From Minisyncoccia bacterium (lineage in GTDB: Bacteria; Patescibacteriota; Minisyncoccia; Phycocordibacterales; UBA918), in the NCBI GenBank assembly GCA_046293175.1, contig JBKBPM010000001.1:102891-166890 (forward strand): DNA of 64,000 bases. The letters are read 5' to 3'. Of the stretch, positions 4,394 through 62,080 are shown piece by piece. The notes under the pieces are model-generated. The model ran no database searches. It was not told the DNA's origin and worked only from the letters and a program-made list of their open reading frames with translations. Numbering within the stretch: the first letter of the stretch is position 1; every line of letters starts with the position of its first letter. The position numbers and the translations under genes are program-made.

Positions 4394-6484
4394 GTGTTGG
4401 TAAATAAATTTAAAATTATGTTTAGCATTATAAATATCAAAAATATTTTCATTGCAGGTCTCTTTTTGACCGTGATGTTTTTTGCTACCCTTGCAACTGC
4501 TCCACAAGCTTTCGCGCTCGGAACAAGTGGTTGTGATGGTTGTGGTGGCAGTGGTAGTACTGGTGGCAGTAACGATGGTGGTAATGATACTCCACAGACT
4601 CCTACCTGTTCGCTTGAGCTTAATAAGCTCGAAGTAACCGCTATTGGTGAGACCTACCGACTTACGTGGTCAGGCGGTCCGGCTTCAGCTCAGTTCTACA
4701 TCAATGGTGCTGCAGTAGCCGACTCAGGCGCTGCGAACTTCACCTTTACTGGTCCAAACTATGACCGTTTTAAGATGGTCGGTAACAATGGAGGTGTGAC
4801 CTGTGAAAAGGAAGTGCGTATTATTAAGAAAGTCCAGGAAGTGCCAAAGTGTGAATCGTTTACCGCTTCACCGGCGACTCTTCCAGCTGGCGGTGGCAAT
4901 GTGACCCTTACTTGGGATACCACGAATGCTACCAACGCTTCAATTGATAACGGTGTTGGCACAGTAGCTGGCGACGGTAGTACTGTCATCAACAATGTGA
5001 CCTCAAACCGTACCTTTACCCTCACGCTCTCAAACGCGGTAGGAAGTGCAAGTTGTCAGGCTTCGGTGACGGTTACCCCAGTGGTACACGCTCCAATCTG
5101 TGACTTCATTACCGCTAGTCCAGTAACCATCACTCGTGGCCAGTCAAGTACTCTCTCATGGGGAACTACGAATGCTACTAGTGCCTTCATCAACAATGGT
5201 ATTGGTACGGTTGCAGTTGATGGTTCAACTTCAGTGTCACCACTTGAAACTACTACCTACACCCTCACCGCTACTGGTGCTGAGAACAAGACAGTATCTT
5301 GTTCAAAGACTATCGTGGTTGATCAGCCAGAAGTGAAGACTCCACGTTGTGAATACTTCAACGCATCTGCTACTACCATTAAGCGTGGCGACAATGTAAC
5401 TCTTACATGGGATACAACAAACGCAAATAGTGCAGTCATCAACCCAGGTGTTGGCTCAGTCGCTGCTGATGGTTCAACCACCGTTTCTCCATCTGAAACG
5501 ACTACCTACACCCTCACCATCACTGGTGACAACAACCAGACTTCATCATGTACTCGTACCGTGAATGTCGAAAGTGGTAGTAACGGCGGAGGTGGCGGTG
5601 GATCATCTTCACCAAAGTGTACCCTCAAGATTTCAGACACTAAGATTACTCGTGGCGATCGTATCACCCTGAAGTGGGATACCTCACGCGCTACTGAAGT
5701 AACGCTTAAGGATAGTCACGGCAAGACCCTTGTTACCACTGATGGTAAGAAGTCATCTGATAAGAAGGATCTCTACGACGGTGAAATCACCCTTCGTCCA
5801 GAAAAGGATACTACCTACACCTTGATGGCTGAACGTGGTTCAAAGGATCGAACCTGTAAGGTGTCAGTAGATGTGAAGGATGGTGTAACGGTTATCACTG
5901 ACCGTGATCAGAAGCCGGTCGTAACTGGTATCTCTCTTACACAGGTTCCATACACTGGTTTTGAAGCTGGTCCATTCCTCACGATGCTTTTCTACGGACT
6001 CTTGCTCCTCTGGGCTCTCTACCTCGCGTATGTACTCGTGGTACGCAAGAACGGTGGCGCAGGTGCCCTTGCTATAGCGACACCTACTCCTACTCCGGTA
6101 GCTCCAGTTGCTCCGGTAGCAGTAAGTACTATGAGTACTCCACGATTCGTGGCTCCAGTTGCAGAAGCTGTAGCTGCACCAGTAGTTGGGTACGCAGCAG
6201 CGACCTCTACTACTGATGCCGCCTACGAAGCGATCGCTGAGAAGGTAGAAGATGCAGCACACGCGCAACACGTCCTTATCTCAAGTGAAGCCATGCGTCA
6301 CTTTATCGGTGCCACGAGTGAAGAAACTCGTACCGAGACATTGACCGCAGTCCTCGCTAAGGCTAAGGCATCATATCCGGCGGAAGATGGTTGGGTAGTT
6401 CTCAACATCGACCGTATGAAGAGTGTGATGGCAGCGATGGCACCAGCCGTCTCAGTCTTCACTCCTCGTTCTGTAGCTGCGTAA
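4394..6484 (+). CDS. Large surface protein with five tandem Ig-like repeats of about 90 aa, a sortase-like VPYTGF motif, a TM segment and a 170-aa C-terminal domain
   Basis: Signal peptide. Repeats follow the pattern C-x-F-ASP-TL-GG-VTLTWDTTNAT-I-NGVGTVA-DGST-TTTYTLT...C. VPYTGF (5945-5962) is followed by a hydrophobic stretch and RKNGG, then an Ala/Pro/Val-rich tail. Confidence 0.75.
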   Translation: MLVNKFKIMFSIINIKNIFIAGLFLTVMFFATLATAPQAFALGTSGCDGCGGSGSTGGSNDGGNDTPQTPTCSLELNKLEVTAIGETYRLTWSGGPASAQFYINGAAVADSGAANFTFTGPNYDRFKMVGNNGGVTCEKEVRIIKKVQEVPKCESFTASPATLPAGGGNVTLTWDTTNATNASIDNGVGTVAGDGSTVINNVTSNRTFTLTLSNAVGSASCQASVTVTPVVHAPICDFITASPVTITRGQSSTLSWGTTNATSAFINNGIGTVAVDGSTSVSPLETTTYTLTATGAENKTVSCSKTIVVDQPEVKTPRCEYFNASATTIKRGDNVTLTWDTTNANSAVINPGVGSVAADGSTTVSPSETTTYTLTITGDNNQTSSCTRTVNVESGSNGGGGGGSSSPKCTLKISDTKITRGDRITLKWDTSRATEVTLKDSHGKTLVTTDGKKSSDKKDLYDGEITLRPEKDTTYTLMAERGSKDRTCKVSVDVKDGVTVITDRDQKPVVTGISLTQVPYTGFEAGPFLTMLFYGLLLLWALYLAYVLVVRKNGGAGALAIATPTPTPVAPVAPVAVSTMSTPRFVAPVAEAVAAPVVGYAAATSTTDAAYEAIAEKVEDAAHAQHVLISSEAMRHFIGATSEETRTETLTAVLAKAKASYPAEDGWVVLNIDRMKSVMAAMAPAVSVFTPRSVAA

Positions 6485-6594
6485 GCCTGACTGAAGAAGA
6501 AACATCAAAAACCGCCCGTATGGGCGGTTTTTGTTTTCCTGAAGTCGCTATCAAAAACAGCGTTTCGAAAGATCAGACACGGTATACTAAAGGG

Positions 6595-7803
6595 GTGAAA
6601 ACTTGGCCGGCATTTTTCGTACTCATATTGGTGGGCATTGGCTTTTTGGCAGTGTCCGTACCGGTTTATGCAGCAGTGTCTTGTGACAGCTTTACAGTGA
6701 CTCCAACCAGTGCTTTGCCCGGTGACTTTGTCACCCTTGATTGGACGACTACCGGTGCCACAGATGTCACGATTGATGCCATTGGAGCAGTCGCTACAAC
6801 AGGAAGTACCATTTTTGAGGTACCAAATAGTCCAGGAACGTTTACTTTTTCTATGGAAGTTTCCGGTGGAAGTATCTTTGAGCCAGAAACTGCATTTTGT
6901 TCGACCGATCTCACTATCAACAGTCTACCAGTTTGTGATGTATTTACCGCTACCCCGGACACCCTCACTGAGCCGGGTGAGGTGACGCTGACCTGGGATA
7001 CTGCATCCGCGACTACTTCAGTGACCATTGATAATGGGATAGGTGTCGTAGCGGAAGATGATTCAGTAGTGGTTAGTGTGGCTGGTGACACCACGTATAC
7101 GCTCACTGCCGTTAATGCGTTTGGAAGCACGCAGTGTACCGCATCGGTGACCTTTGCCGCGACAGATGTAGGTAGTCTGAGTAGCGGCGGGGGAGGCAAG
7201 AGTATCAATCCTCGCTGTGACCTTACAATCGATACTGCGAGTGTGATGGCTGGAGACACGGCACTTATTTCGTACGAAGCGGTAAACGCTACCAACCTTA
7301 TGCTGATTGAATCAACCGCTGGTGGATCAAAAACATTATTTAGTACTACTACGTCCCTCGGTGAACAAACGGGAACTTGGCCAGTCACCGTTTTGGCGGA
7401 TACGACATATACGCTCAAAGTTACAAGACCTCATCGCTCAAGTGAATGTACTGCCGTTGTAGCACTGGCAGACCTCAGCGGCCTTGGTTTGGGCGAAATG
7501 CAAGGTGCGTCTTCACTTGCACTCCGGAATCTACCGGATACGGGATTTTATCCAACTACCGGCTTTATAGTGATTATGAATGTGGTTCTCGTAGCGGCAG
7601 CGGCTTTTGTGGCGTATGTGATCGTAGTATTTGGACAGTTGGCACGGCGGGCAAAGACGGTACCGATACGAGATCGTCTATTTACCCCACAGACAGTTCT
7701 GTACCTGACTGAACGCACCACCCTCCAAACCAAATTATTATTGTGGCGCATTATTGCAGTGACTATCATCTTACTTTTGATAATCTGGTACGCATTTCGA
7801 TAG
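6595..7803 (+). CDS. Surface protein with three Ig-like repeats and a C-terminal LPDTG sorting signal; a sortase substrate
   Basis: Likely GTG start at 6595 after aaagggg; an alternative ATG at 6520 lies inside the upstream terminator hairpin. Signal peptide. Repeats are paralogous to the 4394 gene. LPDTGF (7531-7548) is followed by a TM segment and RRAK, then a second hydrophobic segment. Confidence 0.7.
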   Translation: MKTWPAFFVLILVGIGFLAVSVPVYAAVSCDSFTVTPTSALPGDFVTLDWTTTGATDVTIDAIGAVATTGSTIFEVPNSPGTFTFSMEVSGGSIFEPETAFCSTDLTINSLPVCDVFTATPDTLTEPGEVTLTWDTASATTSVTIDNGIGVVAEDDSVVVSVAGDTTYTLTAVNAFGSTQCTASVTFAATDVGSLSSGGGGKSINPRCDLTIDTASVMAGDTALISYEAVNATNLMLIESTAGGSKTLFSTTTSLGEQTGTWPVTVLADTTYTLKVTRPHRSSECTAVVALADLSGLGLGEMQGASSLALRNLPDTGFYPTTGFIVIMNVVLVAAAAFVAYVIVVFGQLARRAKTVPIRDRLFTPQTVLYLTERTTLQTKLLLWRIIAVTIILLLIIWYAFR

Positions 7804-7855: not shown

Positions 7856-9622
7856 TTATGAGAGTGCGCGAGTATCGCGTTCGTGGGTGAGCTGCTTCAC
7901 AAGGTCATCAATCGTGAGTACCTCCTTGGTGCCATCACGTTTTTCAAGTGTGACCGTGTGACTATTCATTTCTTGGTCACCAAGGACGATGAAGTAGGGA
8001 AGTCGGTCGGTCTTTGCTTGGCGAATCTTCTTACCCATAGATTCGTTTTCTGCATCAAGGGTGGCGCGTAGACCTGCTATCTTGAGTGTTTGGAGCACAT
8101 CCTCAGCATAGGCGATATGCACTGCATTAACAGGGATGATACGCACCTGTTCAGGAGCGAGCCAGAGGGGGAAGTTGCCACCAAGGTGCTCAATGAGGAC
8201 GGCGAGGAAACGTTCGAGTGATCCAGCAATTGCGGCGTGAATCATCACAATTGGCTCCTTCTCACCCTTTTCATTCGTGCAGGTGAGGCCGAAGCGGACC
8301 GGCATGAGACGGTCGAGTTGGATGGTTGCAACCTGGTGGGTGCGACCAATTGAGTCCTTGGCCATGAAGTCGAGTTTCGGTGCATAAAAGGCCGCTTCAC
8401 CAACGCCTTCGAAGTAATCAGCCTCACGGTCTTGTGCAATTTGCTTCATGAGACTCTCGGTCTCTTCCCAGACGGCACTATCGCCAAGATACTTTTCTTT
8501 GTTCTTTGGGTCGTGGAAGGAGAGACGGACACGGAGTTTGAAGTTAAAGGCACCGTAGAACTCACTAATGATGTCCCAGATTTTTTCAATCTCTTCACGA
8601 AGCTGCGACTCACGGCAAAATACGTGTGCATCATCCTGAGTGATTGAGAGTACACGAGTGAGGCCGGTAAGCTCACCTGATTGTTCGGCGCGGTAGACCA
8701 TAGTGGTCTCGGCGTAGCGCTGCGGGAGGTCACGGTACGAACGGGGTACAGCATCATAAATCTGCGTGTGATGCGGACAGTTCATCGGCTTGAGCACATA
8801 CATCTCATGATCATCACCTTCCTTTGCCATAACCTTAAAGAGGTCCTCACTGTATTTGTTCCAGTGACCGGAGGTTTCGTAGAGAGACTTCTTGGCAATA
8901 TGTGGAATTGTCACGTGCTCATAACCACGAGCGTCACGGAGTTCTTGCACAAAAGCATCAAGCCGCTGCCGCAAGGCGGTACCCTTAGGCGACCAAAGCG
9001 GCAGTCCCACCCCGACGAGATCAGAGAATGAAAAGAGCCCCATCTCCTTACCAAGCTTCCGATGATCGCGCTTCTTCGCTTCCTCAAGTTGGGTCAGGTA
9101 AGCGTCAAGCTCGGCAGCTGAATCGAACGCAAGACCATAGACACGGGTCAACATCGGATTTTTTTCGTCACCACGCCAGTAGGCCCCGGCGACTTTGTCT
9201 AGTTTGAAACTATCCGCGTCAATTTCAGCTGAAGGGTTCTCCGAGTGGCCACCGCGACAGAGGTCGGTAAATTCACTCTTACCAGTACCACAGGTGTAGA
9301 GGGTGATGGTTTCGCCACGAGCAGCGATTTCTTCGATCAGTTCGAGCTTAAACCGATTGCCGGCAAAAATTTCACGAGCTTCTTCGACTGACACCTCGCG
9401 ATGGCTCCAAGCGGTCCAAGTATTGAGGAGCTTCTTCATAGCCTTCTGAATCTCCTTTAAGCCATCGTCACCAAGGGCCGGACCGTCACTAAAATCAACG
9501 TCGTAATAGAAGCCAGTGTCGATGGCCGGGCCAAGGGTGAGCTTGGCGTGGGGGTAGGCGTCGATGATGGCTTTGGCCATTAGGTGCGCCAGCGTATGTC
9601 TCTTATGATCTAAGTTACTCAT
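7856..9622 (-). CDS. thrS: Threonine--tRNA ligase lacking the N-terminal TGS domain; it starts at the N2 editing domain
   Basis: 589 aa from MSNLDHKRHTLAHLMAKAI. Class II aaRS motifs present (RDHRKLGKEMGLFSF, KPMNCPHHTQIY, FYAPKLDFMAKDSIGR). The ORF-track extension up to 9799 runs through a terminator hairpin and was rejected. Confidence 0.9.
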   Translation of the reverse strand: MSNLDHKRHTLAHLMAKAIIDAYPHAKLTLGPAIDTGFYYDVDFSDGPALGDDGLKEIQKAMKKLLNTWTAWSHREVSVEEAREIFAGNRFKLELIEEIAARGETITLYTCGTGKSEFTDLCRGGHSENPSAEIDADSFKLDKVAGAYWRGDEKNPMLTRVYGLAFDSAAELDAYLTQLEEAKKRDHRKLGKEMGLFSFSDLVGVGLPLWSPKGTALRQRLDAFVQELRDARGYEHVTIPHIAKKSLYETSGHWNKYSEDLFKVMAKEGDDHEMYVLKPMNCPHHTQIYDAVPRSYRDLPQRYAETTMVYRAEQSGELTGLTRVLSITQDDAHVFCRESQLREEIEKIWDIISEFYGAFNFKLRVRLSFHDPKNKEKYLGDSAVWEETESLMKQIAQDREADYFEGVGEAAFYAPKLDFMAKDSIGRTHQVATIQLDRLMPVRFGLTCTNEKGEKEPIVMIHAAIAGSLERFLAVLIEHLGGNFPLWLAPEQVRIIPVNAVHIAYAEDVLQTLKIAGLRATLDAENESMGKKIRQAKTDRLPYFIVLGDQEMNSHTVTLEKRDGTKEVLTIDDLVKQLTHERDTRALS

Positions 9623-10052
9623 ATCTATGGGCGGCAGCCAGGGTGAGCGTCTCGCTGTGTTGCGGAGCCTCATTGTCGAACTCATCGTATTGCAATACGT
9701 CTCGTTCGCCAATTTCTCCGCGCTTGCGATACATCTCACCGCAACTGCCGAATTGGTTACTGTATTAATAATTAAACGAAAAATCGCCCGAGCGAACATA
9801 TGACAGGATTCATATGTTCGCTCGGGCGTTCTTTTGGTAAAGTCGCGGTTCCACCGAGCTTTAGTAAGGGGTCAGACCCCTTACTTTCTTTTAGTACAGA
9901 TTAGGGAGAGGTTTCTCCACGTCTCCCTAGGCAAGGCCTCGGGACGTGTCCCGAGGCCTTGCCTAGGGAGACGTGACGTTGGTGGTTGGTAGCCACCACA
10001 ATCTCTGTGTTAGGTATCATCCTAGCGGATAGGGAGAAATTGGTCAACCATA
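9623..10052 (-). promoter_or_regulatory. Candidate T-box riboswitch leader of thrS: promoter, short stem I, antiterminator/terminator
   Basis: Minus-strand promoter TTGACC-17-TAGGAT (10047-10019). AGAGA box, then a hairpin whose loop reads cuACCAa (Thr codon ACC followed by A). T-box-like sequence AAAGCUCGGUGGAACCGCG with the canonical 7-nt bulge UGGAACC. Helix A1 (GCUCGG/CCGAGC) and helix A2 (GCG/CGC) compete with a 19-bp terminator hairpin (9785-9828) that is followed by a U tract. About 160 nt then run to the ATG. Confidence 0.6.
9925..9975. repeat. Long palindromic repeat element: 24-bp stem, an extended member of the CCCTAGGCAAGGCC family
   Basis: tctccctaggcaaggcctcgggac-gtg-tcccgaggccttgcctagggaga is a perfect inverted repeat. 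Confidence 0.55.
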
Positions 10053-10520
10053 ATTGTTTAACCCCGCGCCAGGAGTGGTATGGCGCGGAGCGTGGGTTTA
10101 CACCTGATAGTGTTCGATGGGTCCTTCAGGTCTCGCAGGATTTGGCTTATCTGCAAATAGTGCCAGCCAGCCCCTGAATTCTTGGAGGTCGTGTTTCTTG
10201 CGTTTCGGCACGCCCCTTTTCAGCAACAGGTCCAGGCAGGGCATTTCGAAAATCTGAGGATGCACTTCTATGAAATCGTCTCCGAAGATCTGTGAAGTCA
10301 TTGCAGCGATGCGGGGCTGTAGGCCGATCATAGTCTTGAATTCTTAAGTCGTCGTATACCGACTCTCGTTTGGTCCGGTGTAGATCATGATGTAGAAATT
10401 GGAAACGATAGTATCAGGTGCACCTCCGCCAAACCCAATCAATCTCAGTCGCATGTTCGTCCTCCTCTTTAAGGTTGTCGACTTACAATCAAGAATTACA
10501 GAGATAGTGACGAAAAACTA

Positions 10521-13500
10521 CTATGATTTAGATTCTGTGGATGCGATTGGGATGAGTGCCTTCACCCGATCAATGGCAATACTGGGTTCGTCGTTACGAA
10601 TGGTGAGCTTGCCCTTAATGGCCACACATTGGCCGGGGACAAAGAGCTCTTTTTGCTCTGTGTACGTAGATGGGAAGGCGACCATCTCAATCGTATCGTG
10701 TTGATCGCCAAGGACGACAAACGCCATCTTGTCACCTTTCTTGGTGATGAGTTCACGGACACTCACGATCATACCGGTGGTGACTAATTCGCCCTTGAGG
10801 CGGACAATAGTGATTTCTTCATTGTTGCGAACAGCGTTCAGAATCGTACCGATACGCGGTCGCTTGACCACTTCAGCTTCGTAGTCGTCAAGCGGGTGGC
10901 CAGAGACGTAGATTCCCAACAAGTCTTTCTCCCAAATGAGTTTTTCAGCCTTGCTCGCCGCGGGGGCGGGTAGGAGGGTGAGATTGGAGACACTATTACC
11001 ACCGAGGCCAAAGAGGGAATCTTGAGCGCTTTCGGCGTTGGCCACTTGCTCGCGGTTAAAGGACAGCATGAGGTCGACATTGGCGAGCAGATGTCCGCGT
11101 TCGTCCATACTATCAAACGCACCGACCATGATCAGGGCTTCAAGAGATTTTTTATTAAGATTGCGGTTCTTGACTCGGGTAAGAAAGTCTTGGAGAGACG
11201 CGAAGCGTCCGTTCTGCTTACGTTCTTCGATAATCGCTTCACTGATACCCTCACCAAAGTTCTTAATAGTTGTCAGTCCAAACCGAATCGTCTGTTTACC
11301 GGGTACTACTGAGAAGTCGGCAAAGGATTCATTGATATCAGGAGGTAATACCTCGATACCCATACGCTCACATTCATGAATGATTTCGGAGATTTTATCC
11401 GTATCGCCAGAATCGGCCGTGAGGACGGCAGACATGTATTCGACCGGATAGTTCGCCTTCATGTAGGCGGTTTGGTAGGCCACGCGACCATAAGAAGCAG
11501 CGTGTGCTTTGTTAAATCCATATGCGGCAAATGGTTCGATCAGGTGCCAGAGTTTTTCGGCCGTAGTAGGGGAGAGCTTACCGTACTCGAGGAAGCCTTT
11601 CATGAGCTTGTCTTTTTCGGCAGCCATGACCTCGGGAATCTTTTTACCCATCGCCTTACGAAGCATATCTGCTTCAAGCCAGCTGTAGCCGGCGAGCTCG
11701 CGTGCGACAGACATGACGTCGTCTTGGTAGGTAATCACCCCGTAACTTCGTTCGAGGATATTCTTAAGGCGGGGGTCGAGATAGGTGACGAGAGCCGGAT
11801 TATGTTTACGCTCAATGTAGGTTGGGATCATTTCCATTGGGCCAGGGCGGTAGAGAGCCACCATCGCATTGATATCGTGGATGGTGGTGGGGCGGAGTTG
11901 TTTCAAAAATGCGGTCATGCCCGAACCGTTGAGCTGGAAGAGCCCCATCGTCTGACCACTGGCGAGCACTGCAAAGGTTTTCGGATCATCGAGTGGAATG
12001 GCTTCAATATCAATTGCTACACCATGAATCTTTTTTACTCGTTTGACCGCATCGGCCAAAATGGCGAGGTTTTTGATACCCAAAAAGTCGAATTTGAGAA
12101 GTCCCACACCGTCTTCACCGACCGATTTCATTTCGTACTGGGTCACATACTTACCAGTCTTCGGGTCGGGTTGGATTGGTACAAATTGATTGAGAGGTGC
12201 AGGCGCAATTACCACACCGGCGGCGTGTACCCCGAGGTGGCGGACGCGCCCTTCGATCTTTTGGGCGAGGTCAATGACCTCACGCGCTTCAGCGTTGGTT
12301 TTGTATAACTTTTGGAGGTCAGGTTCGATTTCAAGTGCCTTCTTGATGGTCATGGGGAAGCCCTGACTACCCATTGGAATGAGCTTCGCTATGGTGTCCC
12401 CAACACTGTAGGGATGCCCAAGCGCTCGCGCCACGTCGCGTACAGCCGCTCGCGCCATCATCGTCCCGAAGGTGCCAATTTGCGCTACTTTATCTTCACC
12501 GTACTTACTCTTCGCGTATTCAATAATCTCATCACGCCGATTATCGGCGTAGTCCATATCGATATCAGGAGCCGATGGTCGCTCGGGGTTGAGGAATCGT
12601 TCAAAGGGAAGTTGGTATTCAAGGGGGTCTACGTTTGTAATTCCGAGTACATAGGTCGTAAGTGATCCTGCCACCGAACCTCGAATGGTGGTGAGAATAC
12701 CGCGTTCGCGCGCTTCGCGGAGGAGGTCTCCTACCACGAGGAAGTACTTAGCATAGCCTTTGTGCTTGATGACCTCCAGTTCGTAATCAAGACGCTCTTT
12801 CACCTCTGTTTGTTTGGTCAAATCAAAACCACGCCAGGTCGCTCCGCGGTACGCCATGTCCTGCAGTTCTTCGTCTGGTGCTTTGCCACTCTCGATTTGG
12901 TAGTCAGGGAAGTACCAGTGAGTACCAATCTCGAGTTCGACCGTACATTGTTCTGCAATTTTAACGGTGTTTAGAACAGCATCTGGAGTCCCCTTGAAAC
13001 GTTCGATCATATCGGCCTGAGTCAAGAACGAAAAGTCTTCTTCACCTTGACCATCGCCTGAGGTGTCAACGACGCCACCGCTTTGAATTTTGACCATAAT
13101 CTCGCGCGCGATGCGGTCCTCAGGATGGATGTAGTAGACATCGTGTGCGGCGACGAGTGGCGTGTTGGTCGTGCGAGCGAGGGTTATCAATTTGTTTTGC
13201 CATTTCTCATGCTCCACAATTTCGGGATGATGGGTAATTTCGAGGTAGCAGTCTTCACCAAAGACACTCTTGTACCAATCGAGTCGCTCCGCTGCCTTCT
13301 CATCATTTTCGTTTTTGAATTGTTGCACCACTTCGCCAGCAAAGGAGGGGATGATACAGATAAGATCCTTCGCGTAAGTGCGAATCAGCTCTTCGTCGAT
13401 GCGGGCCTTGTAATAAAATCCTTCGAGGTTCGAGAGCGTGACGAGCTTGATGAGGTTTTGGTAGCCCGCAAATGTTTTAGCAAGGAGAACGAGGCGTGAG

Positions 13501-13778
13501 CGTGGCTTATCGATCATAGCTTCTTTATTGTGGCGAGTGCGGGGAGCTAAGTAGGCATCAAGACCAATAATGGGTTTGATGCCTTCTTTGGTACAGGCTT
13601 TATAAAAATCGATAGCACCGTAGAGAGCACCAGCGTCTGTGATAGCAAGCGCATCTTGCCCATCCTCTTTGGCGGCTTTAGCCAGTTCCTTAGGGGTTGG
13701 GAGGGCATTAAGGAGAGAGTAGTGCGAGTGCACATGGAGATGGACGAACTGGGCAGACAGGGGTTTCGGGTCAGACAT
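10521..13778 (-). CDS. dnaE: DNA polymerase III alpha subunit
   Basis: 1085 aa. PHP domain (HLHVHSHYSLLNA), polymerase core (GLLKFDFLGIKNL, YQDDVM) and a C-terminal OB fold. Confidence 0.95.
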   Translation of the reverse strand: MSDPKPLSAQFVHLHVHSHYSLLNALPTPKELAKAAKEDGQDALAITDAGALYGAIDFYKACTKEGIKPIIGLDAYLAPRTRHNKEAMIDKPRSRLVLLAKTFAGYQNLIKLVTLSNLEGFYYKARIDEELIRTYAKDLICIIPSFAGEVVQQFKNENDEKAAERLDWYKSVFGEDCYLEITHHPEIVEHEKWQNKLITLARTTNTPLVAAHDVYYIHPEDRIAREIMVKIQSGGVVDTSGDGQGEEDFSFLTQADMIERFKGTPDAVLNTVKIAEQCTVELEIGTHWYFPDYQIESGKAPDEELQDMAYRGATWRGFDLTKQTEVKERLDYELEVIKHKGYAKYFLVVGDLLREARERGILTTIRGSVAGSLTTYVLGITNVDPLEYQLPFERFLNPERPSAPDIDMDYADNRRDEIIEYAKSKYGEDKVAQIGTFGTMMARAAVRDVARALGHPYSVGDTIAKLIPMGSQGFPMTIKKALEIEPDLQKLYKTNAEAREVIDLAQKIEGRVRHLGVHAAGVVIAPAPLNQFVPIQPDPKTGKYVTQYEMKSVGEDGVGLLKFDFLGIKNLAILADAVKRVKKIHGVAIDIEAIPLDDPKTFAVLASGQTMGLFQLNGSGMTAFLKQLRPTTIHDINAMVALYRPGPMEMIPTYIERKHNPALVTYLDPRLKNILERSYGVITYQDDVMSVARELAGYSWLEADMLRKAMGKKIPEVMAAEKDKLMKGFLEYGKLSPTTAEKLWHLIEPFAAYGFNKAHAASYGRVAYQTAYMKANYPVEYMSAVLTADSGDTDKISEIIHECERMGIEVLPPDINESFADFSVVPGKQTIRFGLTTIKNFGEGISEAIIEERKQNGRFASLQDFLTRVKNRNLNKKSLEALIMVGAFDSMDERGHLLANVDLMLSFNREQVANAESAQDSLFGLGGNSVSNLTLLPAPAASKAEKLIWEKDLLGIYVSGHPLDDYEAEVVKRPRIGTILNAVRNNEEITIVRLKGELVTTGMIVSVRELITKKGDKMAFVVLGDQHDTIEMVAFPSTYTEQKELFVPGQCVAIKGKLTIRNDEPSIAIDRVKALIPIASTESKS

Positions 13779-27397: not shown

Positions 27398-27545
27398 ACC
27401 AAAACCAAGGACATCCGATGTCCTTGGTTTTGGTTTAGTATTCTCCCTAGGCAAGGCCTAGGGAGAATACTTCATTTAAATGAAGTATTCGATTTTATAA
27501 AAATGAAGAACCCCCGAATCGCTCCGGGGAGCCTTCGGGGGTTAT
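27397..27545. repeat. Cluster of four consecutive perfect hairpins/palindromes
   Basis: H1 27397-27436: aaaccaaaaccaaggacatc-cg-atgtccttggttttggttt. H2 27437-27467: REP-like ttctccctagg-caagg-cctagggagaa. H3 27463-27484: atacttcatttaaatgaagtat, the same family as the palindromes around 61500-62080. H4 27508-27540: acccccgaa-tcgctccggggagcc-ttcgggggt. Confidence 0.6.
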
Positions 27546-38545: not shown

Positions 38546-39967
38546 TTGTCCACATCTATGGCAACTGCCAAAAAAGTAGCGAAAAAAGCCAATACACCAA
38601 AGAAAAAAGCGGCAAAAGCCGTCAAGCCATTCACTAAAAAGAAAGTAATCAAAGGAGCAAAAAAGACTGTCAAAAAAGTCGCCGCTCCAAAGAAGAACGT
38701 CGTCAAGCCCACCAAAAAAGCTATTTCAAAAAAACTAACCAAAAAGGTCATCAAACCCGCTAAGAAAGCAGCAGTCAAAAAAGTCGTGCCAAAAAAGATG
38801 AAGAAGCCAGTAACTAAAAAAGTCGCCGCTAAAAAAGTGGTAGCAAAAAAAGTCGCTCCAATCAAAGTACTCCCTGTGAAGGCGCCGACAAAGAGTGAAA
38901 AGATTTTAGAACTTAAAGCCGCCGAACTCATGAAGAGTGGTCGCGAGCGTGGTTATGTAACATACGACGAGCTCTTACGCTCTTTTCCAGAAATTGAAAA
39001 GGATATCATGTTCCTCGATGAACTCTACGAGCGCTTTTCGAATGCTGGGGTTGATGTGCTGAAGAGTGGTGGTATGCTTGGTGCCGATCCAGCCGAAGAG
39101 CTTTTGGCTCAAAAGAATGCCTTTCGTCGTAATGATTCAAGTTATGACTCAATCCAGATGTACCTCCGTGAAATTGGTCAGTATCCACTCCTCTCCGCAC
39201 ACGAAGAGCGTACCCTCGCAAAGCGTATCGTTGATGGTGACGAAGAAGCACGTAACCTCCTTGCGCGTGCGAACCTCCGTCTTGTGGTTTCAATTGCGAA
39301 GAAGTACGTCGGACGTAGTCCAGACCTTACCCTCCTTGACTTGATTCAAGAAGGGAATCTTGGTCTCTTTAAAGCAGTTGATAAATTCGACTTCACCAAG
39401 GGCTTTAAGTTCTCAACCTACGCTACCTGGTGGATTCGCCAGGCGATTACCCGTGCGCTTGCTGACCAGTCTCGAACTATCCGTATCCCGGTACACATGG
39501 TAGAAACCATGGCGAAGTACAAACAGGTAGCTCGTCGTCTTTCCCAGGACCTCGGCCGTGACCCAATGCCAGAAGAAATCGCTACCGAAATGGGTGTTGA
39601 AGTTGAAAAGATTTACCAAATTGAAAAAATCAGTCAGGACACCATTTCACTCGAACTCCCAATTGGTGACGAAGATGATCATTCTCGCCTCTCAGACTTT
39701 ATTGCTGATGATAAGATTATCGCTCCTGACCAAGAAGTATCTCACAGTATCCTGACCGATCAGATTACCGAAATCCTCGATACCCTTTCAGAGAAAGAGC
39801 GCAAGATTCTCGAGATGCGTCATGGACTTCTCGATGGTACCTACCATACCCTTGAAGAAGTAGGAAAGGAGTTTGGAGTAACCCGCGAACGTATCCGCCA
39901 GATCGAAGCCAAGGCACTCGAAAAAATCCGCAGCCATGAGAAGGCTCGTCGTCTCAAGAGTTACTAA
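38546..39967 (+). CDS. rpoD: Primary sigma factor (sigma-70 family) with a lysine-rich, histone-H1-like N-terminal extension
   Basis: Regions 1.2-4.2 present ([57 protein letters not shown]). The first 115 aa are KKxA/KKV repeats. Confidence 0.9.
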
Positions 39968-49637: not shown

Positions 49638-50906
49638 CTACTCGCTCTTTGTAATGTGAGTGATGAGTTCTTCAAGTGTGCCTTTGAGCTCAGTTTCTTC
49701 AATGAGGTTTTTGAGGGTGTAGGTACCTGAGGCAAGTTCGTTTTCACCGACCACAATGATATATTCGACGAGGCGTTCGGCGGCGTCACTGATTTTTTTG
49801 CCAAGCTTACGGGTACCGATATCGGTCGCCACACTGATTTCTTTTTTGCGGATAGCCATAGCAATTTTTTGGGCAGCGAGATTGTGGCTTGCTTCCATCG
49901 GAATCACCATCACGGTTGGGGCGGTGATACTTGAGGTCAAAAGGTCGTGCGTCTCTAGGAAATCTCGCATCGTGACATCGCCCATCCCAAAACCAATACC
50001 AGAAATTGGGTCGGCGCTAAACATACCGGTGAGGTTGTCGTAGCGACCACCGCCAAGCATTGAACGGTTGTTCTCACCTGAAACATCGAAGATTTCGAAA
50101 ATGGTTCCGGTGTAGTAATTAAAGCCACGAGCGATAGAACGATCAATTTTTACGTTCTCGATTCCAAGTTCACGAAGTCCATCAACAACTTTGTTTGTGT
50201 CAGTCGTATCACCACCTGAAATGAGTGTGTAAACATCATCGACAATAGCATCTTCAACCACAATTTCTTTGAGTGCTGTTTTGTATTCGTCAGTGCTAAT
50301 CTTGTGGAAGCGGTCATTAAGACGAGTAATGGCATCTTGCTTTTCAATGTCGGTAACACCAAAGACTGTGTATTTGGTGCGCATCTCTGCTCGGTCATTG
50401 ATACGGATTTCAAAAAGATTGGCTTCGGCACCAAAGTTCATGATAATTTGGTAGGCGAGCGCTATAATCTCGACGTCGGCGGTGTAATCGTCCGCGCCAA
50501 AAATGTCGCAGTTAAGCTGCCAGTGTTCACGCAAGCGACCACGCTGTGGGCGCTCGTAGCGGAAGAGGTTTGGGATACTGTACCAACGGACGGGAAGAGA
50601 CAGTTCACGACGGCGACCAGCGACCATCCGAGCGACGGTAGGGGTCATCTCAGGGCGCAGTGTCACTTCACGTTCGCCACGATCAATAAAGGTGTAGGTC
50701 TGCTCGTTCACCATCTCTTCGTTTTCGGCCCCTTTGCTCTTGTAGAGGATAGACGGTTCGAGGACTGACGCATCATAGCGCTCAAAGCCAAAGCTTTCGG
50801 CGGTCGCTGCCCAAACATCAAAAATATAGCGTTGGATCGCCATATCTTCTGGATAAAAGTCACGGACACCTTTGTATGGGTCGGTGGAGAGGTAGTTGTC
50901 TGCCAT
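49638..50906 (-). CDS. hisS: Histidine--tRNA ligase
   Basis: Class II aaRS. HisRS motifs (YKGVRDFYPED, RYERPQRGRLREHWQ, GGGRYDNL) and the anticodon-binding domain. Start adjusted to MADNYL. Confidence 0.9.
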   Translation of the reverse strand: MADNYLSTDPYKGVRDFYPEDMAIQRYIFDVWAATAESFGFERYDASVLEPSILYKSKGAENEEMVNEQTYTFIDRGEREVTLRPEMTPTVARMVAGRRRELSLPVRWYSIPNLFRYERPQRGRLREHWQLNCDIFGADDYTADVEIIALAYQIIMNFGAEANLFEIRINDRAEMRTKYTVFGVTDIEKQDAITRLNDRFHKISTDEYKTALKEIVVEDAIVDDVYTLISGGDTTDTNKVVDGLRELGIENVKIDRSIARGFNYYTGTIFEIFDVSGENNRSMLGGGRYDNLTGMFSADPISGIGFGMGDVTMRDFLETHDLLTSSITAPTVMVIPMEASHNLAAQKIAMAIRKKEISVATDIGTRKLGKKISDAAERLVEYIIVVGENELASGTYTLKNLIEETELKGTLEELITHITKSE

Positions 50907-50947
50907 GCGCTTGATTCTAGGGGAAAAAACGGCCGATAGCAAGCATT

Positions 50948-61482: not shown

Positions 61483-61516
61483 ATAAAATACTCCATTTAA
61501 ATGGAGTATTTTATCG
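61483..61516. promoter_or_regulatory. 34-bp perfect palindrome overlapping the 3' end of the TrpR-like gene
   Basis: gataaaATACTCCATTTAAATGGAGTATtttatc. Confidence 0.6.
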
Positions 61517-61933
61517 CTTCCGTTTTGCTTTAATAATATAGTTTCGGCGTGGCATGATGCCACCCACAGTGAGAATTGAGTCGATTAATATGAGCAAATC
61601 AGTGTAGTTCTTTTTGCTTTTAGTTAATGATTCGATGATGTTAGAAAACTCTTTTCTCTCATACCTCTCAAATAATTTTGCTACGGTAGTTTCGCTCACT
61701 TTGAGCCGCTGTGCAATTGAGTAGCAAGATCTCCCTTCATTGAGCATTAATACAATTGCTAATCTTTTAGCGAAGATTTCTTTTTCTTCATACCCAAATA
61801 GTTCTTCATAAAACATTCGCGCTTGATTTCCATTTAACTTTCCAAGTACATCAGTAAATTGCGAGATAAGATGTTCGCGTTGAACCTCTGAGAGACGATC
61901 TTTGGATAACCTCATACCAACAATATACTCCAT
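61511..61933 (-). CDS. TrpR-family (YerC/YecD-like) helix-turn-helix protein
   Basis: 140 aa. ...LMLNEGRSCYSIAQRLKVSETTVAKL... is a TrpR/YerC-type HTH. The first ATG lies inside a palindrome; the real start may be the Met at 61915 (MRLSKDRL). Confidence 0.7.
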   Translation of the reverse strand: MEYIVGMRLSKDRLSEVQREHLISQFTDVLGKLNGNQARMFYEELFGYEEKEIFAKRLAIVLMLNEGRSCYSIAQRLKVSETTVAKLFERYERKEFSNIIESLTKSKKNYTDLLILIDSILTVGGIMPRRNYIIKAKRKR

Positions 61934-61953
61934 TTAAATGGAGTATATTGTTG
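61916..61953. promoter_or_regulatory. 38-bp perfect palindrome overlapping the start codon of the TrpR-like gene
   Basis: ccaacaatATACTCCATTTAAATGGAGTATattgttgg. Confidence 0.6.
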
Positions 61954-62036
61954 GTAGGCGTGGATTAGTTAATCTACCCATAACAGTTTTGGCTGCACAC
62001 CTTATTAAATTTTTATTTGTGAAATTATTAATACTG

Positions 62037-62080
62037 ATACTCCCCAATACTCCATTTAAATGGAGTATTGGGGAGTATCA
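62037..62080. promoter_or_regulatory. 44-bp perfect palindrome with duplicated ATACTCC half-sites
   Basis: GATACTCCccaATACTCCATTTAAATGGAGTATtggGGAGTATC. Lies between truB (3' end) and the TrpR-like gene. Confidence 0.6.

Follow-up and report, generated by a model that had tools for sequence, protein, structure and literature searches.

How is thrS, the gene for threonyl-tRNA synthetase (ThrRS), controlled in the Patescibacteria? The question is raised by a stretch of contig JBKBPM010000001.1 (positions 102,891 to 166,890, forward strand) from the assembly of a Minisyncoccia bacterium (GCA_046293175.1). This stretch of 64,000 nucleotides (nt), numbered from its first letter, is referred to here as the window. 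T-boxes are the textbook case of an RNA that reads both the identity and the charge of another RNA, and an initial annotation had proposed a T-box-like leader with a minimal Stem I in front of thrS. On the minus strand, the stretch from 10047 to 9774 begins with a promoter, continues with a structured 5' domain and the discriminator of a T-box, and ends with an overlapping terminator and its U tract. We consider it highly probable that this leader is a transcriptional T-box which senses uncharged tRNA-Thr, controls thrS and uses a non-canonical decoding domain. Its architecture is distinct and apparently undescribed. The earlier suggestion of an unusually compact T-box variant is supported, with refinements to the fold of the 5' part.

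T-box discriminator and terminator upstream of thrS

The gene and the 3' half of its leader comprise the following features:

7856-9622, minus strand: thrS, encoding ThrRS of 588 amino acids (aa), the gene under the proposed control
9886-9895, minus strand: purine-rich linker ACUAAAAGAA between helix P1 and Stem III
9863-9885, minus strand: Stem III, AGUAAGGGG-UCUGA-CCCCUUACU, which aligns to Stem III of the Rfam T-box family RF00230
9820-9859, minus strand: antiterminator, consisting of helix A1, the T-box bulge and helix A2
9859-9854 with 9825-9820, minus strand: helix A1, GCUCGG/CCGAGC, which covaries
9853-9847, minus strand: T-box bulge UGGAACC, 7 nt, of the UGGNACC type
9846-9844 with 9828-9826, minus strand: helix A2, GCG/CGC, with a 15-nt loop
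9785-9828, minus strand: intrinsic terminator hairpin of 19 bp, with the 3' strands of A2 and A1 included in its 5' strand
9774-9784, minus strand: U tract AUUUUUCGUUU, directly after the terminator

Both helices of the antiterminator and the intervening bulge, as they had been described before, are present in the sequence, which reads AAAGCUCGGUGGAACCGCG at 9862-9844 of the minus strand, and all three are conserved in orthologous leaders. Stem III is directly followed by AAA at 9862-9860. On its 5' side lies GAAAG (9888-9884), which includes A9885 and G9884 of Stem III itself and resembles the RRRxG flank motif as defined in PMC7583486; flanks of the AAAG(C/U)G type (AAGCG, AAGUG or AAGAG, plus AA) occur in most orthologs. 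Stem III shows compensatory differences in the close relative L174 (orthologous loci are given by their L numbers) and is missing in L012, L029 and L044, the last of which, counted from P1 as far as the U tract, is only about 135 nt long. To our knowledge, such members without Stem III (about 135 nt) would be among the shortest transcriptional T-boxes.

The terminator and U tract are likewise found where they had been placed, and the hairpin excludes the antiterminator because both need 9828-9820. Folding of the discriminator segment yielded -51.1 kcal/mol for the terminator conformer versus -24.8 kcal/mol for the antiterminator conformer, and the terminator is formed in the minimum-free-energy fold of the window leader. 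As is usual for T-boxes, termination is the default, and the antiterminator depends on stabilization from outside. A terminator of 12-20 bp, beginning at the 3' strand of A2 and followed by a U tract, was present in 17/17 leaders examined, about 30 to 290 nt before the thrS ATG, while the distal parts of the stems are unrelated in sequence. The tetranucleotide UGGA of the bulge is invariant in all 13 aligned leaders. As the N of UGGN is also A in five divergent leaders, U73 is predicted as the discriminator base of tRNA-Thr. The base of A2 is the pair G9846-C9826 in the window and not a G.U wobble; across the 13 leaders, seven have G.U and six G-C.

A search with RF00230 at the gathering score gave no match in the window, and none was obtained at E ≤ 10 over 601 nt of the window. 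The segment 9770-9900, searched alone, yielded a 5'-truncated match of 17.4 bits (gathering score 93; E = 0.03) to model positions 146-219 of 219, which covers Stem III, AAA, GGUGGAACCGCG and the 3' strands of A2 and A1. The discriminator of the ortholog L002, which has no palindromic insertion of the kind described below, aligned in the same manner (16.3 bits, positions 124-219). Because RF00230 aligns only there, both in the window and in L002, the 3' half of the leader is homologous to the T-box discriminator, and nothing in the leader corresponds to the first 145 positions of the model, which hold Stem I, Stem II and IIA/B. This partial alignment at a relaxed threshold and the conservation in orthologs bear out the proposed T-box-like leader. 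An ordinary canonical T-box, missed by Rfam only through the palindrome and an unusual base composition, would also be expected to have the textbook discriminator that is seen here. However, none of 21 related thrS leaders from the candidate phyla radiation (CPR), most without any insertion, matched RF00230 at the gathering score, and the insertion-free L002 aligns over the 3' part of the model only. In addition, the codon is displayed in an apical loop 5' of other hairpins and inside a closing helix, a topology unlike the internal specifier loop of Stem I. We therefore regard a canonical T-box as extremely improbable.

Proposed decoding domain of the leader

The region 5' of the linker was resolved into these elements:

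9896-10008, minus strand: structured 5' domain, the closing helix P1 around P2, P3 and P4
10004-10008, minus strand: P1 5' strand ACAGA, paired with 9900-9896
9999-10003, minus strand: junction J1/2, GAUUG, conserved
9980-9998, minus strand: P2 specifier hairpin UGGUGG-CUACCAA-CCACCA, with a 6-bp stem and a 7-nt apical loop (9992-9986)
9918-9975, minus strand: P3, a perfect palindrome of 58 nt with 28-bp arms (9918-9945 and 9948-9975) and a 2-nt loop, built from a CCTAGG-type hairpin unit
9906-9917, minus strand: P4, a short hairpin GAGA-AACC-UCUC, by fold prediction
9901-9905, minus strand: junction J4/1, CCUAA, conserved
9896-9900, minus strand: P1 3' strand UCUGU, with covariation

Comparison with thrS leaders of related genomes, which had been suggested as a check, showed conservation and covariation of the bulge (UGGNACC), of the terminator and of the loop with ACC. 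Among the fetched loci, 12 from CPR genomes have the motif TGGAACCGCG at 93-322 nt before thrS, the Bacteroidota loci all lack it, and five further CPR loci carry GGTGGAACC. In 13 leaders a common order was found: P1 (5 bp), GAUUG, P2, a variable P3, a short P4, (C)CUAA and the 3' strand of P1, continuing with the linker, Stem III, AA, A1, UGGAACC, GCG...CG(U/C), the 3' strand of A1, the terminator and the U tract. The full architecture occurs upstream of thrS in about 20 distinct Patescibacteria/CPR leaders besides that of the window.

Pair counts were taken from the 13 leaders over P1, P2, A1 and A2 (20 pairs), with the variable parts cut out. Standard pairs occupy 96.2% of the cells and 15/20 pairs are changed on both sides, counts that are slightly inflated as the 3' registers of P1 and A1 were picked partly by best pairing beside the CUAA and CG anchors. 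None of 500 shuffles matched any of these measures, and partners slid by 1-3 columns pair at 32-40%. The extent of pairing and the shuffles thus demonstrate that the leader is more than chance. A covariance model (R1) built from 11 orthologs, with the window left out, matched the window at 9818-10011 of the minus strand over the full model length (80 bits, E = 9e-18), its only match in the 64 kb. R1 also finds the held-out leaders of L039, L048, L056, L175, L176, L180, L182, L184 and L187, with held-out scores of 60-106 bits. Weak, divergent matches were obtained in L028 (bulge UGGAAAC), L018, L019, L030, L031 and L053. Beyond the core set, the leader family is broader and more diverse.

Within the 5' domain, all five pairs of P1 and all six pairs of the P2 stem covary, the former each changed on both sides among the 13 leaders. 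GAUUG is found in 11/13 leaders, the other two being single-base variants, and CUAA in 12/13. A short hairpin displaying ACC followed by A had been noted and is present at 9998-9980: the Thr codon ACC occupies 9990-9988 of the P2 loop, with A at 9987, about 365 nt upstream of the thrS ATG. ACC is the only invariant triplet of the loop (13/13 leaders), the loop usually reads CUACCAA, and the base after ACC is always a purine, A in 12 leaders and G in L010. The loops of P3 and P4 are not conserved among the orthologous leaders; a short hairpin is predicted at the P4 position in most of them, with no conservation of its sequence.

The AGAGA sequence that had been taken for an AGAGA box exists (10007-10003) but is not the T-box AG bulge, as its AGA belongs to the covarying P1. 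No elbow-binding platform (AGAGA bulge plus UGxRA loop) was recognized in the window leader or its orthologs. No Stem II was found either: only 8-14 mostly purine nt lie between P1 and Stem III, with P3 and P4 inside P1, and this gap leaves no room for a Stem II domain. The 5' domain is compact, as the initial annotation had it, but its fold is not that of a classical Stem I cut short: the specifier hairpin, with a loop like that of a tRNA anticodon arm, is part of a small junction of several helices. The conserved GAUUG and CUAA might lengthen P2 by three pairs (UUG/UAA), leaving a GA bulge, or might build a junction motif of the UAA/GAN type. Two other arrangements are not favored. The register AGAUUG/UAAUCU in place of P1, chosen by RNAfold in five leaders, fails in L037, L039, L048 and L056, where P1 covaries, and a K-turn formed by GAUUG/CUAA beside P1 does not appear, on inspection, to fit the pattern of C-stem, 3-nt bulge and tandem G.A. 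Inspection of the distant leader L019 revealed a plausible K-turn.

The 5' junction could bind something other than tRNA while the 3' half is a T-box discriminator, for example ThrRS, as in the operator of E. coli, or another protein, with ACC conserved for a different reason. A cloverleaf-like shape with a 7-nt loop does recall tRNA mimicry, but the loop shows the codon ACC and not a Thr anticodon (GGU, UGU or CGU), the feature that ThrRS recognizes in the operator of E. coli. The placement of ACC in an apical loop, with a purine after it, is exactly that of the specifier in short Stem I T-boxes (PMC7583486). ACC is moreover the preferred Thr specifier, and the discriminator needs a tRNA delivered by some anticodon contact. 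These points outweigh, in our view, the lack of similarity to Stem I of RF00230 and the outcome of a metagenome scan in which no version of the domain with a non-NCN codon was found, so that a different ligand of the 5' junction is very improbable. The scan used the pattern GATTG-N6-CTNDNAA...CTAA...GGTGGNACC for non-NCN codons, NCN codons (Ala, Pro, Ser) being excluded by design. It returned 91 matches, which look like chance, none with pairing of P1 and P2 and GCG after the bulge; the best of them, L122, was rejected as it lies inside a gene for a repeat protein of 1626 aa. The 5' domain looks specific to thrS, with Ala, Pro and Ser codons outside the scan. Neither pattern searches nor R1 revealed other T-boxes in the 64-kb window, and hisS is without such a leader.

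The palindrome at P3 is real, with arms of 28 bp rather than the 24 bp at 9925-9975 given before. That it takes the place of Stem II did not hold up: it sits in the variable P3. In the 91-92% identical relatives L174 and L173, P3 is short (GCCuuuGGC and GUCCuuacGGAC), as it also is in L001 and L002. Since P3 is short in L174 and L173, the palindrome of the window is a recent insertion or expansion at a variable site. Long palindromes occur at the P3 site in L175, L176 and L184, where they are CCTAGG-rich and mutually different, and an unrelated one in L187. Such recurrence may stem from a palindromic element that moves, from expansion of the hairpin or from selection in favor of a long P3.

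These findings bear on the possibility that the window copy is a decaying T-box in which the palindrome, the G-C pair of A2 and the 160-nt spacer in front of the ATG have disabled tRNA sensing and left a constitutive terminator or a leaky leader. The palindrome is indeed absent from L173 and L174, but P3 length varies in all orthologs and four other relatives with long palindromes keep the rest of the leader. G-C instead of the G.U wobble is common to the whole close clade and to 6/13 leaders, and is not a private lesion. The terminator forms in the minimum-free-energy fold, as decay would predict; however, thrS is expected to be essential, so that a constitutive 19-bp terminator upstream would be harmful. 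All helices and conserved junctions are intact in the window, which R1 matches at full length with 80 bits. Decay of the switch is quite improbable.

Proposed mechanism and relation to known T-boxes

For the transcriptional T-box that we favor, a mechanism can be drawn by analogy with solved T-box-tRNA complexes (PMC7583486). Transcription would start about 10 nt upstream of P1, and the nascent 5' domain would fold into a multi-helix junction that is closed by P1 and in which the 7-nt loop of P2 presents ACC and the following purine, P3 and P4 being variable. The anticodon GGU of tRNA-Thr would pair with ACC of the P2 loop in a loop-loop contact, and the free tRNA 3' end, for which UCCA is predicted, would pair with UGGA of the bulge and stack on A1. 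An uncharged tRNA would stabilize the weak antiterminator, and RNA polymerase would read through into thrS. With a charged tRNA, whose aminoacyl group would block pairing, or with no tRNA, the more stable 19-bp terminator would form and transcription would stop at the U tract. The format of the P2 loop, pyrimidine-U-ACC-A-A, is that of a tRNA anticodon loop, and the contact with the tRNA may be similar to the kissing of two anticodons. Among the Thr specifiers of catalogued T-boxes, ACC ranks first (60%; PMC7778990).

Several points weigh against this interpretation. While the conserved, covarying and mutually exclusive elements are seen in the sequences upstream of thrS, tRNA binding, charge sensing and antitermination themselves are proposed from the analogy. 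The pair counts are slightly inflated, and RF00230 gives the leader just 17.4 bits, far below its gathering score of 93. The GGU isoacceptor and the U73 discriminator base of tRNA-Thr are predictions: the window has no tRNA gene at all, and no tRNA-Thr gene was found in the approximately 70 thrS-centred loci scanned, where only Ser, Val and Leu tRNAs occur. PMC7583486 describes a G.U wobble at the foot of A2 as the primary steric sensor of the aminoacyl group, but the window and 6/13 leaders have G-C there. A long Stem I is generally needed by transcriptional T-boxes, the tRNA elbow being bound by its platform of interdigitated T-loops (PMC7583486); this platform, reported to be necessary for them, is absent here, so that sufficiently fast capture of the tRNA would need another explanation.

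On balance, we lean towards the view that these leaders form a third architectural class of T-boxes, transcriptional and confined to thrS of Patescibacteria/CPR. The tRNA would be read at two points only, by the kiss between heptaloop and anticodon and by pairing of the discriminator with NCCA, with no elbow platform, K-turn or Stem II clamp. If true, such a class would contradict the view that transcriptional T-boxes need the Stem I platform.

With the transcriptional T-boxes of Firmicutes (RF00230; B. subtilis tyrS, thrS and glyQS), the window leader shares its place in front of an aminoacyl-tRNA synthetase gene, the cognate codon followed by a purine, the purine flank, Stem III, AA, A1, the UGGNACC bulge, A2 and the mutually exclusive terminator with U tract. 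Unlike them, it lacks a long Stem I, an internal loop with an S-turn to house the specifier, a platform of AG bulge and distal loop and any recognizable K-turn. Stem II and the IIA/B pseudoknot are missing as well, the codon is displayed in a 7-nt apical loop within a P1-closed junction, and G-C takes the place of the A2 G.U wobble.

Specifiers in an apical loop have been described for a translational class, mostly actinobacterial, in which Stem I is short (PMC7583486): the short ('ultrashort') Stem I T-boxes of ileS (Sherwood et al., 2015; structures 6UFG and 6UFM, as summarized in PMC7583486). To clamp the codon-anticodon helix, this class relies on a K-turn, an S-turn in Stem II and the IIA/B pseudoknot (PMC7583486). 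The window leader resembles it in the specifier in the apical loop of a short hairpin, the absence of an elbow platform and the same discriminator core. In contrast to the sequestration of the Shine-Dalgarno sequence in the ileS T-boxes, the output in the window is an intrinsic terminator with U tract. Further differences from the actinobacterial T-boxes are a linker of only about 10 nt before Stem III, a specifier hairpin that shares the inside of P1 with two others, Thr as the amino acid and Patescibacteria as hosts.

The window leader also invites comparison with a regulator of the same gene in E. coli. There, ThrRS regulates its own synthesis through the thrS translational operator, whose hairpin loop mimics the tRNA-Thr anticodon (xGU), overlaps the ribosome-binding site and carries anticodon-like bases that bind ThrRS and block the ribosome. 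Both are thrS leaders with a hairpin whose 7-nt loop is anticodon-loop-like, but the loop CUACCAA of the window shows a codon, lies far from the ATG and is coupled to a T-box discriminator and terminator.

In the searchable full-text library, beyond which further papers are possible, no paper was found on T-boxes in CPR, Patescibacteria, Saccharibacteria or Parcubacteria, nor any with a thrS leader of this kind. TBDB was built with RF00230 plus a class II model, the latter applied to Actinobacteria and to sequences that the class I model had previously detected. Because the collection rests on these models so applied, it would be expected to miss the leaders described here. If our interpretation is true, a conserved transcriptional T-box without platform or Stem II clamp would represent a new minimal way of decoding tRNA and would extend T-box regulation to Patescibacteria/CPR. 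Reduced genomes would then keep feedback control of at least one aminoacyl-tRNA synthetase, and the leaders could offer a small natural scaffold for structural work and for the engineering of tRNA-responsive switches.

Surrounding locus and variable insertions

Three further features flank the switch:

10064-10088, minus strand: hairpin CCGCGCC...GGCGCGG, directly after the stop codon of an open reading frame (ORF) of 77 aa
10019-10047, minus strand: sigma-70-type promoter TTGACC-17-TAGGAT, by sequence match
9633-9749, minus strand: long imperfect hairpin in the spacer between terminator and ATG (fold z = -3.5)

The promoter is present as had been predicted (10047-10019), and a match to TTGAC(A/C/T)-17/18-TAnnnT lies 7-13 nt upstream of P1 in 7/13 orthologous leaders; owing to this conserved position, the RNA probably begins right at the 5' domain. 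The upstream neighbors of thrS are dnaE (10521-13778; Pfam) and then the 77-aa ORF. The hairpin that follows this ORF also occurs in L173, L174 and L176, with differing loop sequences, and likely represents the terminator of the upstream unit (dnaE plus the small ORF), in which case thrS would be a separate transcription unit.

According to Pfam, ThrRS of the window has a class II core, an HGTP anticodon-binding domain and a SAD domain. It is without the N-terminal TGS domain and begins directly at the editing/SAD region, and the retrieved CPR homologs are similar in length (about 560-650 aa). The ATG at 9622 lies 162 nt past the terminator stem, in agreement with the gap of about 160 nt recorded before, and this gap is a variable insertion; the same start is used in orthologs. 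A longer thrS ORF from ATG 9799 was rejected, as this ATG lies inside the terminator stem and orthologs begin at the equivalent of 9622. In some genomes thrS has been called too far upstream (ORFs of 634 aa and 647 aa), and the riboswitch is thereby hidden inside the annotated coding sequence; examples are L187, with the leader at 9875-10044 and the called start at 10001, and the window ORF 7856-9799. The nearest ThrRS proteins, 85-92% identical, are encoded in metagenome-assembled genomes that carry the label Candidatus Paceibacteria or Patescibacteria group, and identity to species-representative genomes reaches up to 74%. The genome is therefore that of an ultra-small bacterium of the CPR/Patescibacteria, with a G+C content of about 48-50%. 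The loci of close homologs (±10 kb) are all syntenic with the window.

The spacer of about 160 nt is common to the window and L174. A different inverted-repeat element occupies this place in L173, L176 and L003, and the spacer is absent in L175. Judged from their distribution, both the palindrome and the spacer are lineage-specific insertions at variable sites, outside the conserved switch.

Divergent CPR thrS leaders with a GGUGGAACC-like bulge were seen in L028 (95-280; UGGAAAC), L018 (2778-2895; CGGAACC), L019, L030, L031, L052 and L053. An ACC-A hairpin loop is kept in L019 (CUACCAA), L031 and L052 with other 5' arrangements, that of L019 looking like a simple hairpin.

Repeats related to the variable elements were noted as well. 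The inverted-repeat type GTCATTGCGAAGAGG...CCTCCTCGCAAAGAC, found in the spacers of L173, L176 and L003 and in the upstream region of L030, looks like a dispersed miniature repeat. Within the window, related CCTAGG hairpins lie at 2453-2481 and 27440-27466. Perfect palindromes of another family, AATACTCCATTTAAATGGAGTATT, occur three times within 600 nt at 61485-62080 and once more at 27464-27491, adjoining the CCTAGG hairpin at 27.4 kb.

Two large ORFs on the plus strand converge on thrS, 4394-6484 (696 aa) and 6391-7803 (470 aa), neither with a Pfam match; relatives carry syntenic ORFs of 695-1169 aa at the same place, mostly without a Pfam match. The window also encodes histidyl-tRNA synthetase (hisS, 49638-50942). 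Finally, the N-terminal region of a sigma-70 gene (38546-39967, plus strand) consists of short tandem repeats of the AAAAAAGT(C)GC type at 38579-38868, which would encode a Lys/Ala-rich low-complexity stretch.

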